Made by a program: the position numbers and the translations under genes
Origin: a virus
Reading direction: 5' to 3' (one strand)
DNA: 51,563 bases
UHGV virus genome: UHGV-0189653
Notes under the pieces: model-generated
Told to the model about the DNA's origin: nothing
What the model saw: the letters and a program-made list of their open reading frames with translations, nothing else
The model's database searches: none
Shown: one piece after another, positions 17,505-22,966 of the stretch
Layout of the letters: the number at the start of each line of letters is the position of its first letter
How positions within the stretch are numbered: the first letter of the stretch is position 1

Positions 17505-18362
17505 CTAATTGGGTGATGACAAATCCTGTCTATGAGCGTTTCCCTTTGTGCGTGCGTTGAAGCTGATAACGGTAAACGTCATGATGAACACAACCGCGAA
17601 TAAGACGACAATCGTCGGAGCTGGTGCGCTGTCGATAAAAAAGGACAGCCAGACACCAGTCATTGAGACTATTACCGATATGCCAGTCGCCAGTAGGAGC
17701 GCAATATGAAAGCGTTGTGTCAGGAGTACCGCAATGGCGCCAGGCGCAATGAGCAGAGAAATGGAGAGAATGATACCTACTGCTTTCAGCGTTGCCACAA
17801 TGGTCAGGGAAACCATGCACAGCAGCCCATAATGCAGCCATCTCGTATGCAAACCGCTTACCTGCGCCTGTTGATAATCAAAGCTGAACAGCAAAAAATC
17901 CCGCCATTTTACGCTAATAACAAGTGTAACCAGCCCGGCAATAATCACCGTCTGGATTATATCGCCGATGGTTACCCCGAGCATGTTGCCGAAAAGAATA
18001 TGGTCAAGATGTACGTCTGGTTTGACTGCAATATACAAGATCAGACCTGCGGCAAACATGCCAGAAAAAACAATCCCCATCACTGTATCTTGCTTGATTC
18101 GGCTGTTGTCTTTCAGGTATCCCGTCGCCACCGCGCAGAATACTCCGGCGATAAATGCCCCTGTAGCCAGAGGTAACCCCAGAATCCAGGCAAGCACGAT
18201 GCCAGGAAAAACCGCATGACTCATCGCGTCACCCATCAGTGCCCAACCTTTCAGGACCAGAAAGACCGACAGCAGCGCACAGGGTATGGAAACTACCAGT
18301 GAAATCAGCAGTGCGTGACTCATAAAGGTAAACTGCAGTGGCTCCAGTAATAATGCCATCAT
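17505..18362 (-). CDS. sitD: Mn/Fe ABC transporter permease SitD
   Basis: 285-aa polytopic membrane protein, ABC-3 family, last gene of a four-gene minus-strand operon with overlapping junctions. Confidence 0.85.
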   Translation of the reverse strand: MMALLLEPLQFTFMSHALLISLVVSIPCALLSVFLVLKGWALMGDAMSHAVFPGIVLAWILGLPLATGAFIAGVFCAVATGYLKDNSRIKQDTVMGIVFSGMFAAGLILYIAVKPDVHLDHILFGNMLGVTIGDIIQTVIIAGLVTLVISVKWRDFLLFSFDYQQAQVSGLHTRWLHYGLLCMVSLTIVATLKAVGIILSISLLIAPGAIAVLLTQRFHIALLLATGISVIVSMTGVWLSFFIDSAPAPTIVVLFAVVFIMTFTVISFNARTKGNAHRQDLSSPN

Positions 18363-19216
18363 GAGCGATCCTCCAGCGCTTTATGCGCACGCCGACGATT
18401 TGCCAAAAGCCCATGGGTGGGCGCAAATACAAATGCTAAAAGAAACAGCAGTGTCTGCGCTACCACGATGATTCCACCTGTCGCGCCGTCCAGAAAGTAA
18501 CTGACCCACGCGCCGAGGAAACTGGTTACACTGCCAATAGTTACAGCAATTATGAGCAGGCGGGGAAAACGATCGGTTAACAACCATGCTGTTGCACCGG
18601 GAGTCACCACCAGACAGATCACCAGAAAGGCACCAACCGTTTGCAGCGCCGCAACGGTCGAAACCGACAGCAGGGTGAAGAAGAGGATTTTTAATCTGCC
18701 CGGATGCAATCCAATAGCACGGGCGTGATTCTCGTCGAAAAAGGTCACCATAAGATCTTTCCATTTGAAAAAAAGCACGATGATCGAGAGAATGCCAATG
18801 ATAGTGAGTTGCAGGATATCCGCCGGATCGATTGCCAGAATATTGCCCAATACGATGGTCTGAATGTTCACGGATGTCGGGTTCAATGACACCATAAACA
18901 GCCCCAGGCCAAAAAAGGAGGAGAAGATCAGGCCGATGATGGCATCTTCTTTTAAGCGAGTGCGTTGGTTAAGAAACAGCATGCTGCCCGCTGCCAGTCC
19001 GCCGGAAAAGAAGGCTCCCAGAGAAAACGGAAGCCCCAGCATATATGCTCCCGCAACACCCGGGACAATAGAGTGCGACAGCGCATCGCCAATCAGCGAC
19101 CAGCCTTTTAGCATCAGATAGCATGACAGGAAAGCGCAGAGACCGCCAACCATCGCCGAGACCCACATCGCATTGAGCATATATTCATAGCTGAAGGGTT
19201 CCAGTAGCACGTTCAT
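18359..19216 (-). CDS. sitC: Mn/Fe ABC transporter permease SitC
   Basis: 285-aa ABC-3 permease paralogue; 4-nt overlap with sitD and sitB. Confidence 0.85.
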
Positions 19217-20040
19217 CTTGCTTCCCTCTGCACCGCTGACGGTCGATGTGCCACAAAAGGGCGTTCATCGTCAGTAATAATGCTTTCTTCCGAGCCGTTA
19301 AGTGTGACATGGCGCAGTACGCCGCTAAAAGCCAGCTCCAGGTTCTCGGCTGTAAAAGTGGTGTCTGTCGGCCCGCTTGCCAGGACGGTGTTTTTGACCA
19401 TGACCGTATAATCGCAAAATGTCGTGACTGAGCCGAGATTGTGCGTTGAGACAAGCATCGTCTTGCCTTCCGCGCGTAACTCCCTCAACAGGCTGATGAT
19501 TTTCGCTTCGGTTTTCACATCAACGCCGGTAAAAGGTTCATCCAGCAGGATCACATCACCCTGCTGTGCAATCGCTCTCGCCAGAAAGACGCGTTTCTTT
19601 TGTCCACCGGAAAGCTCGCCGATTTGTCGATGGCGAAAATCCACCATATCGACACGTTCCAGCGCATCGGTGACAATCTGACGATCCCTCTTTTTGGCTA
19701 TACGCAACATACCCATGTGCCCATAGCGGCCCATCATCACCACATCTTCCACTAGTACAGGAAATGACCAGTCAACCTCTTCTGACTGAGGGACGTAGGC
19801 AACCAGGTTTTTCTGTAGCGCCTGTCGCGTGGGAATACCCAGAACAGATATCTTTCCGCTGGTCAGACGCACAAATCCCATAATCGCTTTAAACAACGTC
19901 GATTTTCCGGAACCGTTTACCCCAACCAGAGCGGCAATAGATCCACTTGGTACTGTGAAGGATGCATCGCGCAGTGCTGTGTGCCCGTTACGCCAGGTGA
20001 CAGTAACATCATTAACGACAATGCCCGCAGATTGCATCAT
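19213..20040 (-). CDS. sitB: Mn/Fe ABC transporter ATP-binding protein SitB
   Basis: 275-aa ORF with Walker [13 protein letters not shown] signature LSGGQ and Walker B ILLDEP. Confidence 0.9.
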
Positions 20041-20954
20041 TATTTCTCCCTTTTCCCGGCTTTAATTCCCTGTACCAGCGTACTGGTAGTAACCTTCAGA
20101 AGGTCGATATACGTAGGTACCGGGCCGTTTTCTGTGCTCAGGGAATCGACATAGAGTACACCGCCGTAGTGCGCGCCGGTTTCACGCGCAACCTGACGCG
20201 CTGGTTTATCGGAAATCGTACTCTCGCTAAAGACTGCCGGGATATGATTTTTCTTCACCATATCAACAACCTTACGTACCTGCTGCGGCGTGCCTTGTTG
20301 ATCGGCATTAATCGGCCACAGATAAAGCTCTTTTAGCCCCAAATCGCGTGCGAGATAAGAAAAAGCCCCTTCACTGGTGGCCATCCATCGCTGATTCTCA
20401 GGGAGTTCAGCAATCTGCTTACGCAGGGGGGCAAGGGTTTGGGTAATCTTGGCTTTATAAGTATCGGCATTACGTTGGTAGGTTTGTGCATTTGCCGGAT
20501 CGTATTTTATCAACGCATCACGAATATTATCGACGTAAATCAGAGCATTATCTGGCGACATCCAGGCATGGGGGTTAGGTTTGCCCTCATAGGGGCCTTC
20601 AGTGATCCCTACTGGCGTCACACCCGAAGAGACAATTACTTCTGGAACCCCATTAAGATGCTGGTAAAAGCGTTGGAACCACAATTCCAGATTCATACCA
20701 TTGGCGAGAATCAGTTGTGCCCCCTGCGCACGTTTAATATCGCCAGGGGTAGGCTGATACTCATGAATTTCTGCACCGGGCTTGGTTATGGATGAGACTT
20801 CTGCAGCATCTCCAGCCACGTTTTTGGCCATATCTGCGATGATGGTAAATGTTGTAATGACCTTGAATTTTTCAGTTGCACTCGCCTGAAATGCGATCGA
20901 GCAGGTGAGGGCGAGGCACCCCAAGAGCATGGTTACTTTTTTTATTGAGTACAT
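20040..20954 (-). CDS. sitA: periplasmic Mn/Fe-binding protein SitA
   Basis: 304-aa ORF with signal peptide ([18 protein letters not shown]), cluster-9 substrate-binding protein; first gene of operon. Confidence 0.9.
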
Positions 20955-20986: not shown

Positions 20987-21008
20987 AAACATAGCAACGG
21001 CTATGTTT
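20987..21008. promoter_or_regulatory. MntR box upstream of sitA
   Basis: Perfect inverted repeat AAACATAGC-aacg-GCTATGTTT, matching the MntR operator consensus as I recall it. Confidence 0.6.
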
Positions 21009-21031: not shown

Positions 21032-21050
21032 AAAATGATTATCATTAGCA
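21032..21050. promoter_or_regulatory. Fur box-like site upstream of sitA
   Basis: gaAAATGATtATCATTAgC matches ~15/19 of Fur consensus GATAATGATAATCATTATC. Confidence 0.5.
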
Positions 21051-21159
21051 ATTTTAGATCCGAACCGGGATTAGGTTGTTTCCTGCTGGCGACGTGGTAC
21101 TGAGGAAAAAAGTAGGGCACCTATTAGGCTTTGAAATGACTTGATGAGGAAAATTGTTG

Positions 21160-21410
21160 ATGGCAAAAATGGGGCAAAGCGCTGCAAAAGGGGCAAAAAA
21201 GGGGCAAAAAAAGAGTGGGTTATCGTAGCTTATTGTTGTCGCTGATGATATTTAACACATTGAAAAATAAGTAAAATACTTATGAGTCAGAGAGTTGTGA
21301 TTTTTGCCCTTACTTGTTCAGGTTGTATTGTTCTTTCTTTGTAATTTGTTGATTTTCTTGCATTATTTCAGTTCTCTGGTACTAAATGGGGCAAATTGGG
21401 GGCAAACTTT
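21160..21410. other. attP: phage attachment site region (attP-like) with integrase arm-type repeats
   Basis: Direct repeats of (T/G)GGGCAAA at 21162-21210 (four to five copies), inverted copy TTTTGCCC at 21302-21309, two more direct copies at 21387-21407 abutting the int 3-prime end; core not delimited. Confidence 0.5.
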
Positions 21411-21414
21411 GCAA

Positions 21415-22650
21415 CTATGATAACCGCGCATTCAACATGGCTATCTGTTCGTCGTTCATGTCATCAATCCACATACCGTAAATTTCATACACCATCTGCG
21501 CAGTTTCATGCCCCATTTGGCTGGCTATAAATGCCGGGTTCGCTCCTGCCGTCAACAGCCAGCAGGCAAAAGTATGCCGCGTATGGTACGGATTACGGCG
21601 GCGAATACCAGCACGTTTTACTGCTGCATTCCACCTTGCCCCCAAACTGCTTACCGAGTAATAAGGTTTTTGTTTTCCGTTACACACCCTGGGCATGAAA
21701 ACAAAATGCAGTTTTTGCTTTTCGGTTCTGCCGTACTCCCGATGATAAAAGGTGATTTCGCTTTTGCGATGATGCCCGGTCAGTTTGTATTGCTCCTTCA
21801 GTGCTTCAAGAGCAGGCTGCAGTAGTGTTACTGTCCGGATCCCGGCATTTGTTTTTGGGGGACCGAACATATCAAGTATCGTCAGGTTTCTTCTGACATT
21901 CACTATTCCCTTTTCGAGATCCACATCCTCCCACGCCAGAGCTGCCAGTTCCCCGTGACGAAGTCCTGAGTAAACTGCAAATTTCCACATGTTCTGGCTC
22001 TGTCCTTTTTCACTTTCCATTAATGCATTGAATTCTGTTTTAGATAACGGATCAGGCTTTATTCTGTTTCGCTGTAATTTTTTTACTCCTTCAAATGGTT
22101 TGGTTGATATAAATCCCGACTGATACGCAAAACGTAACAGCGAACAGAGCAGGGCGATATAGTTATCAACTGTGCGCACGGTTCTTCCTTTTTTGTTGGA
22201 TCTTGGATTATCCAGGTAAAGCGTTTCTCCATGCAGCAGTTCATTCCGGTAGTTTAAGATATCGCTATAACGAATATGTGATATCAGGGTACTTTCACAA
22301 ATTATTATTCTGAGTGTTTTTAATTGTGATTTCGTTTTCTTCATTGTGTTTGTTGTTAACTCTGTCTCTTTAATTTTTGTCCAGATATCACAAAGCTCTC
22401 CGAACGTTTTTATGACTCTCGTTGTCACCATTTTTGCCCCAGTGCTGGACTGGGGAAAACGTCTTAAATACTCAAATTCACCGGAGTTTATTTCATGAAC
22501 TATCAGCGCTCTTAAATTTCCGGCCTTTTTAATATTACTGTTTGTAATCTCCCAGCCTTTTAATGTTTCCCGACATCGTTTTCCTCGAAACATGAACCAG
22601 ATGCGAATGTATCTACCTCTAATCTCGACACCTGTTGGTAATTTAGACAT
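21415..22650 (-). CDS. intR: tyrosine integrase (Rac IntR-like)
   Basis: 411-aa ORF, N-terminus MSKLPTGVEIRGRYIRIWFMFRGKRCRETL, C-terminal catalytic R..HxxR..Y region; adjacent to att repeats. Confidence 0.95.
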   Translation of the reverse strand: MSKLPTGVEIRGRYIRIWFMFRGKRCRETLKGWEITNSNIKKAGNLRALIVHEINSGEFEYLRRFPQSSTGAKMVTTRVIKTFGELCDIWTKIKETELTTNTMKKTKSQLKTLRIIICESTLISHIRYSDILNYRNELLHGETLYLDNPRSNKKGRTVRTVDNYIALLCSLLRFAYQSGFISTKPFEGVKKLQRNRIKPDPLSKTEFNALMESEKGQSQNMWKFAVYSGLRHGELAALAWEDVDLEKGIVNVRRNLTILDMFGPPKTNAGIRTVTLLQPALEALKEQYKLTGHHRKSEITFYHREYGRTEKQKLHFVFMPRVCNGKQKPYYSVSSLGARWNAAVKRAGIRRRNPYHTRHTFACWLLTAGANPAFIASQMGHETAQMVYEIYGMWIDDMNDEQIAMLNARLS

Positions 22651-22651
22651 A

Positions 22652-22867
22652 TCATGAGTCTTTGATAAACTGATTTATCTTTGGATAGTTGTACCAGATA
22701 ATCCCTCGTTTGCTGTCTGGCTTACCTAAAGGAGATACTCGTTTGAAGTGGAAGCCCTCCACCCAACAGTTCTGGCGGTATGCTTCAATTTGTCTGGCCC
22801 CCAGACCAGTGCGAAGCATCAGGCCGTATTCAACCATCCACTCTTCATTAAAGATTACTTGTGCCAT
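22652..22867 (-). CDS. ydaQ: excisionase-like protein (YdaQ/Xis)
   Basis: 71-aa product [16 protein letters not shown]... immediately upstream of int. Confidence 0.75.
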
Positions 22868-22966
22868 CGCATCACCTCTGGCAGGCGCCAATGTTAGACT
22901 GAAATTGACGCCCGATGTTGATTATTAATAATCAGCTATGAAGTTTTAATTTGAATACAATGCAAT

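Follow-up and report, generated by a model that had tools for sequence, protein, structure and literature searches.

A Rac-type attP with predicted arm-type integrase sites in a complete lambdoid phage genome

The region 21160–21414 of the UHGV-0189653 sequence (the window, which is the whole stretch of 51,563 bp that was analysed) is the attP of a Rac-type lambdoid phage, that is, one that integrates in ttcA, and its TTTGCCCC/GGGGCAAA repeats are most probably the arm-type sites of a heterobivalent integrase (Int). The sites supported in this prediction are three in the P arm and two in the P′ arm. That Int is the protein which binds the repeats, and how the sites would be divided between integration and excision, we infer from the sequence and its conservation.

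The window corresponds to a complete, circularly permuted lambdoid phage genome of 51.5 kb, in which the head and tail genes are followed by sitDCBA, int, xis and the early region, and then by the lysis, terminase and head genes. The integrase had been described as Rac-type in the initial annotation, which is confirmed by its identity with IntR of K-12 (409/411 residues, 99%) and by the presence of an arm-DNA-binding domain. According to Pfam, residues 5–69 form the domain Arm-DNA-bind_2 (PF12167, E=3.8e-26, full profile covered) and residues 205–391 form the catalytic domain (PF00589, E=2.8e-23); the protein has, then, a separate N-terminal domain for arm DNA besides the core-binding and catalytic domains.

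Repeats, core and surrogate ttcA start

Seven exact copies of GGGGCAAA are present in the 51,563-bp window, against a mean of 2.63 in whole-window shuffles, and five of the seven are inside 236 bp (21171–21406). Their plus-strand starts are 21171, 21190, 21201, 21388 and 21399, and all five share one orientation. When the shuffle mean is scaled to 236 bp, the Poisson probability of at least five copies is about 2e-12, so that the clustering of repeats first noticed in 21160–21410 is real. The spaced pair GGGGC-N6-GGGGC is found twice in the window (21190 and 21388; 0.10 expected), once on each side of the crossover site, and Tandem Repeats Finder called an 11-bp period at 21162–21210. The plus strand reads ATGGCAAAAA TGGGGCAAAG CGCTGCAAAA GGGGCAAAAA AGGGGCAAAAA from 21160 to 21210, and TGGGGCAAAT TGGGGGCAAAC from 21387 to 21407.

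A weight matrix was built from relatives only (Int identity of at most 74%), and both strands of the window were scanned with it. The information core of the matrix is TGCCCC; the three P-arm copies occupy ranks 1–3 of the window, and the P′ copies ranks 6 and 8. Since the motif holds little information beyond TGCCCC, single matches elsewhere in the window are expected by chance. The features of the region, with matrix scores and ranks, are as follows.

21160–21169, minus strand: degenerate copy ATGGCAAAAA; score 1.3, rank 555; the outer slot is exact in PHB10 and phi367, and the K-12 Rac attR homology starts here
21167–21179, minus strand: predicted P-arm arm-type site; exact GGGGCAAA at 21171–21178 (CTTTGCCCCATTT on the int strand); top score, 15.3; also in K-12 Rac attR
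21181–21189, minus strand: degenerate copy GCTGCAAAA; score −6.7; PHB10 and phi367 have a spacer without a match in this slot
21186–21198, minus strand: predicted P-arm arm-type site; exact GGGGCAAA at 21190–21197; score 14.9, tied for ranks 2–3; forms an 11-bp pair with the next copy
21197–21209, minus strand: predicted P-arm arm-type site; exact GGGGCAAA at 21201–21208; score 14.9; sites are also found in the corresponding slots of PHB10 and phi367
21301–21309, plus strand: inverted near-copy TTTTTGCCC; ends 4 bp left of the core; score 9.3, rank 33
21310–21363, minus strand: phage-borne surrogate ttcA 5′ end of 17 codons, translated as MQENQQITKKEQYNLNK and a stop; identical in K-12 attL; overlaps the core
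21314–21339, no strand assigned: common core TTGTTCAGGTTGTATTGTTCTTTCTT, 26 bp, from the identity among attP, attL and attR
21342–21354, minus strand: IHF consensus site AATCAACAAATTA, H′-like; a perfect WATCAANNNNTTR match, one of four in the window
21384–21396, minus strand: predicted P′-arm arm-type site; exact GGGGCAAA at 21388–21395; score 14.0, rank 6; belongs to the 11-bp pair found in 79/80 relatives
21395–21407, minus strand: predicted P′-arm arm-type site; exact GGGGCAAA at 21399–21406; score 13.8, rank 8; second member of the conserved 11-bp pair
21415–22650, minus strand: int, IntR-type tyrosine integrase of 411 aa (PF12167 and PF00589)
22652–22891, minus strand: xis, DUF1233 excisionase, homologue of XisR (PF06806, E=8.9e-21), with K-12 xisR at the same position; the ORF as listed begins at an upstream TTG, and the true start may be later

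The core was mapped by a three-way comparison of the window attP with the attL and attR of Rac in K-12, as had been proposed in the initial annotation. The window equals K-12 Rac attR from 21160 through TTGTTCAGGTTGTATTGTTCTTTCTT, and K-12 Rac attL from TTGTTCAGGTTGTATTGTTCTTTCTT to int. This shared identity of 26 bp sets the core at 21314–21339 and indicates that the window has an unsplit attP; going by the three sequences, strand exchange must fall within these 26 bp. The three exact P-arm copies are 106–143 bp to the left of the core and the two P′ copies 49–67 bp to its right, and the repeat motif, found in both arms, is unrelated to the core sequence. The proposed layout of P arm, core and P′ arm is therefore upheld, with the core between three and two exact copies, and so is the assignment to the Rac type, as the attP is intact and has its core and arms as in K-12. 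The core had been supposed to surround the inverted copy, which is not the case, as it lies 4 bp to the right of TTTTTGCCC.

The segment 20900–21356 is matched by thousands of E. coli genomes, which then diverge into host DNA of the uspF side. By their sequence these are attR junctions, and the attR-type matches end just past the core.

The surrogate ttcA 5′ end has a consequence for the host gene: on integration the 5′ end of ttcA is exchanged for the phage-borne one, and in lysogens the ttcA 5′ end and its upstream region are phage DNA, namely the P′ arm. The surrogate start MQENQQITKKEQYNLNK with its stop explains the four-residue change of TtcA reported by Liu et al. 2015 (PMC4632033). The IntR-type Int, the Rac core with its arms and the surrogate ttcA 5′ end characterize the region as a Rac-type int/att module.

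Some details of the first description of the repeats had to be corrected. It counted four to five P-arm copies, of which three are exact, while ATGGCAAAAA (21160) and GCTGCAAAA (21181) are degenerate and off the family motif. With their scores of 1.3 and −6.7, and no conservation, these two were rejected as supported sites. The 21160 copy is possibly a decayed outer site, and the 21181 copy is most likely a spacer of one helical turn between sites; the comparison of slots with PHB10 and phi367 suggests an ancestral P arm with two sites, one spacer turn and two sites. The inverted copy does exist at 21301–21309, but has just three G/C of the G4 run, ranks 33rd in the window and is not conserved, and it was likewise set aside as a supported site. 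At an equal distance PHB10 carries GATTTTGCC, oriented the other way, and no similar sequence is seen in the wrbA phage. The two P′ copies at 21387–21407 are exact, and they touch the int stop codon only approximately: the stop is TAG on the minus strand at 21415–21417, and the last repeat copy ends 8 bp short of it.

Other features were observed around the attP. Two homology breakpoints are seen on its left side: phage 21-like sit phages match the window only to about 21137 (21137/21138), and the K-12 Rac attR match begins at about 21160 (21160/21161), precisely where the arm array has its outer limit, which suggests that the functional attP would start at about 21160. The sitDCBA genes (iron/manganese ABC transporter; 17505–20954, minus strand, the sitA ORF ending at 20954) are a cargo between the tail-fibre genes and attP, which is also present in phage 21, in ev017/Lambda_ev phages and in many E. 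coli prophages with other integrases. A terminator-like hairpin with a T-run is located at 20987–21008 on the minus strand, upstream of sitA on the int strand, and could shield the sit operon from int/attP transcription. Just inside the arm array, at 21220–21239, a TTATCGT/TTATTGT direct repeat with 10-bp spacing was recognized by eye and is a possible site for an accessory protein. In addition, in seven E. coli genomes (e.g. N31, NZ_CM165896.1, 6000–8800) sitA and an intact attP are followed by the remnant of a truncated int and by another sit permease, degraded, ahead of uspF. This arrangement resembles a scar left by Rac-type prophages that were in tandem or nested.

Conservation among relatives of Int

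The repeat pair was searched in 80 species-level genome loci that encode Int relatives with 43–100% identity. An exact GCCCC-N6-GCCCC is present at the int 3′ end in 58/80 loci, and a pair with at most two mismatches in 79/80, with a spacing of 11 bp without exception; the remaining 633 kb contain seven exact pairs. Most of the IMG/VR relatives end 3 bp past the int stop, and 14 loci with downstream DNA were used for the region beyond it. In the six phage records that keep the DNA downstream of int, more TGCCCC-like copies were found in every case (6/6), 195–220 bp past the int-proximal site. These are exact tandem pairs in 4/6 phages, and single or degenerate copies in mEp460 and Stx2_499. 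All tandem pairs in the compared phages have the 11-bp spacing, and all sites have one orientation. The positions are given below in int-forward orientation (motif TGCCCC), as distances from the int stop.

Window: P′ +12, +23; P arm +210, +221, +240
PHB10 (also with ttcA as target; Int identity 69%): P′ +10, +21; P arm +218, +237, +249
mEp460 (Int identity 43–44%): P′ −38, −27; P arm +180, with degenerate copies beside it
CobraSix (Int identity 43%): P′ −41, −30; P arm +167, +178
RothC (Int identity 42–43%): P′ −38, −27; P arm +169, +180
phi367 (wrbA phage; Int identity 44%): P′ −59, −48; P arm +152, +163, +183, +194
Stx2_499 (Int identity 40%): P′ −21; no exact P-arm copy, degenerate GTCCC/GCCCT at about +180 to +215

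The DNA of PHB10 around the sites is otherwise unalignable with the window. In ttcA prophages of other genera (Int identity 61–70%), TTGCCCC-N4-(A/G)TGCCCC is kept, while the sequence that otherwise separates the int stop from the ttcA ATG has diverged. In phi367 the core was placed at +16 to +32, between its two arrays, from the overlap of attL- and attR-type lysogen junctions, as a local BLAST of its attP against K-12 wrbA gave two ambiguous short matches; its distances from core to arrays resemble those in the window. Related integrases thus share the motif and its placement in spite of changes in the surrounding DNA and in the integration site, and the idea that the repeat is the arm motif of Rac-type integrases gains support from this family-wide conservation at the same places.

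In the relatives with 43–53% identity, the int ORF is extended at its 3′ end, and the P′ pair falls within this extension, where it encodes a conserved C-terminal peptide, FAPxMPH. As the pair is in the int frame there, part of its conservation in these relatives could come from protein-coding constraint; on the other hand, FAPxMPH may itself be a by-product of constraint on the DNA and not on the protein.

Outside this group the motif is replaced. Downstream of int, TGCCCC is missing from two Pseudomonas phages whose Arm-DNA-bind_2 integrases are 29–31% identical to Int. One of the two, MR15 (Arm-DNA-bind_2 Int, 31% identity), has a different repeat, AAAGTTG/CAGCAAC, in a similar layout, near the int stop and 150–210 bp downstream (spanning −17 to +217 after the stop), and these copies flank a sequence, GGTTCAAATCCCCCCGGCTCCACCA, that by appearance resembles a tRNA 3′ end. 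A different repeat in MR15 is to be expected if repeats change together with the specificity of the arm-binding domain.

A second element, (A)ATCG(T/C)CCA(A/G)GAGC, was observed after the int stop, ahead of the downstream TGCCCC copies, in CobraSix (about +72 to +96), RothC (about +70 to +97), phi367 (about +57 to +78) and Stx2_499 (about +75 to +100). It is common to phi367 (wrbA) and Stx2_499 (beside an ompW prophage) despite their different places of insertion, and in phi367, the sole phage of the four with a mapped core, it is on the P-arm side. This element is a candidate site for an accessory protein or Xis.

Candidate proteins for the repeats

The presence of the motif on both arms is a defining property of arm-type sites and, as read from the sequence, favours Int over Xis as the binding protein. 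Between the core and the P′ pair is the IHF consensus at 21342–21354, IHF being a DNA-bending accessory protein, and an IHF GeF-seq peak has been published on the identical K-12 attL sequence (PMC8407004). By analogy, this arrangement corresponds to the C′-H′-P′ geometry of lambda and also favours Int. No IHF site was established in the P arm of the window.

We consider it improbable that the repeats bind some other factor (for example, a nucleoid protein of the host, or a protein regulating the ttcA or int transcripts), or that they are roleless leftovers of slippage. A regulatory role would agree with the fact that in lysogens ttcA has the P′ arm upstream of it; however, the promoter scan detected no promoter-like site over the P′ pair, the motif is unlike the IHF consensus and has no Rfam match, and it tracks the integrase subclade, being absent in the two Pseudomonas phages and substituted in MR15 by another repeat with the same layout. 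Neutral slippage is ruled out by the strict 11-bp spacing and the position kept in 79/80 species-level loci with different integration sites.

The P-arm array is highly unlikely to serve as the XisR (DUF1233) site. Direct repeats one helical turn apart are the typical targets of recombination directionality factors, which normally sit on one arm only. The P-arm direct repeats do have a period of 10–11 bp, but a conserved pair with this motif is also found in the P′ arm by int, so that the motif is not confined to one arm. All motif-bearing relatives also carry a DUF1233 Xis, which is paired with the integrase in every relative examined, and covariation therefore cannot separate Int from Xis. 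The published gel shifts bear on this more directly. Liu et al. 2015 (PMC4632033) reported that XisR shifted an AttR fragment of 294 bp, which contains the array, and did not shift the AttM control. The primers of that EMSA were remapped on K-12. AttM (291 bp) lies in the K-12 Rac attR region equivalent to about 21040–21440 of the window, and comprises the whole P arm, with all three GGGGCAAA and the inverted copy, ending 1 bp before the core; the AttR fragment starts at the array, crosses the core and ends in host DNA. As AttM with the entire P arm was left unshifted, the array is not sufficient for binding of XisR, which favours Int over XisR as the binder. Binding of XisR seems to need the core or core-proximal part of attR, or its host B′ side, and such a need is unusual for an excisionase.

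Equally implausible is a mainly structural role of the P-arm array, in which phased A-tracts (GGGGCAAAAAA every 10–11 bp) would bend the DNA and aid intasome folding without sequence-specific recognition: the P-arm copies of the window do carry A5, A3, A4, A6 and A7 in helical phase, but the P′ copies have only A3, and A/T tracts are not kept in relatives (CobraSix, RothC ATGCCCCAT) where TGCCCC is nearly invariant, so that phased tracts of at least 4 bp are not a conserved feature. An intrinsic bend would be at most accessory; it may add to the function of the sites and does not explain their conservation.

With Int as the preferred binder, a mechanism can be proposed by analogy with lambda. 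The N-terminal Arm-DNA-bind_2 domain of each Int protomer would dock on a TGCCCC site, and the C-terminal domains of the same protomers would bind and cut in the 26-bp core (21314–21339). IHF would bend the DNA at 21342–21354, so that Int on the P′ pair could reach the core. The resulting intasome would integrate the phage into the ttcA 5′ end, with the phage providing the surrogate ttcA start, and excision would use XisR.

Regarding previous work, the searched literature, in which few subscription journals were covered, contained no report of arm-type sites of Rac, IntR or this integrase subgroup, or of Int binding to arm DNA; an earlier description of these sites is possible in view of that coverage. 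Searches for the repeat strings as text, including GGGGCAAA and TTTGCCCC, returned only unrelated papers. Members of the DUF3596 "IntBPP-1" subgroup of integrases, to which this Int belongs, are called "putative" by Smyshlyaev et al. 2021. The feature is thus of an ordinary kind, arm-type sites, and apparently undescribed so far for this integrase family.

Comparison with known systems and meaning

The attP of lambda has the arm-type sites P1, P2 and P′1–P′3, the IHF sites H1, H2 and H′, and the Xis sites X1 and X2, with the P and P′ sites inverted relative to each other. The window resembles lambda in the position of the core between a long P arm and a short P′ arm by the int stop, in the tandem P′ arm sites about one helical turn apart and 50–80 bp from the core, in the IHF site between the core and the P′ sites, in the heterobivalent Int and in the location of xis upstream of int. 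It differs from lambda in several respects: the arm-binding domain is Arm-DNA-bind_2, a Pfam family other than the lambda-type domain, and its motif is TGCCCC; three strong P-arm and two P′ sites are present, all in one orientation; the core is of 26 bp and inside the protein-coding ttcA; and, in the published EMSA, no binding of XisR to the P arm by itself was seen.

The attP of phage 21 / e14 (GenBank OL657228.1) also has tandem P′ subsites, three in number (consensus YYTTCCCCAAAA; TTCCCCAAAA), that abut the int stop. Phage 21 carries a surrogate end of its host target gene, icd, as well, and its sitABCD cargo adjoins attP. On the other hand, its record likens its Int to lambda Int, its C-run is opposite relative to int with a spacing of 12–13 bp, and its target is the icd 3′ end; phage 21 shares with the window only the sit side, to about 21137.

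The closest system is the cryptic prophage Rac of K-12, which has the same att/int module, with 409/411 identical residues in Int, an identical 26-bp core and arms identical inward from 21160. While the window is a complete phage of 51.5 kb with an unsplit attP and sitABCD, Rac is a 23-kb remnant whose site is split into attL and attR. For K-12 Rac the core, XisR and IHF are defined in published work.

For the catalytic domain, the nearest solved structures are those of Tn1549 Int (6emy, E=2.3e-07). The DUF3596 "IntBPP-1" subgroup was placed next to IntTn916, with an arm-binding fold of three strands and one helix (Smyshlyaev et al. 2021). At the sequence level, the Int N-terminal domain gave no match with the Tn916/Tn1549 structures. 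Unlike the Int of the window, those of Tn916 and Tn1549 are integrases of conjugative transposons, which have arm repeats of their own and whose specificity for the core is relaxed.

The results offer an arm-site consensus that can be put to the test, W-T-W-TGCCCC-W in pairs with a spacing of 11 bp, and they map the attP anatomy for IntR, whose subgroup is common in enterobacteria and includes integrases of Stx-converting phages. The general model of site-specific recombination is unchanged. In practice, the pair flags the int-proximal arm in 79/80 species-level loci and can help in delimiting prophage ends, and the sites may be of use for minimal attP cassettes in ttcA or wrbA integration vectors.

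The sharing of arm sites between co-resident prophages can now also be tested. Rac-like prophages belong to the subclade with TGCCCC pairs, and so do Stx-converting phages of the wrbA and ompW types, for which E. coli genomes have the integration sites in addition to ttcA. As the N-terminal domains are well conserved, an Int could also occupy arm sites in a prophage other than its own. We put forward only tentatively, as a rather doubtful extension, that a single arm-site word across the enterobacterial DUF3596/Arm-DNA-bind_2 subclade allows such cross-talk between Rac-like and Stx prophages. If this were true, Rac-like and Shiga-toxin prophages would interfere with, or help, each other in excision and integration.
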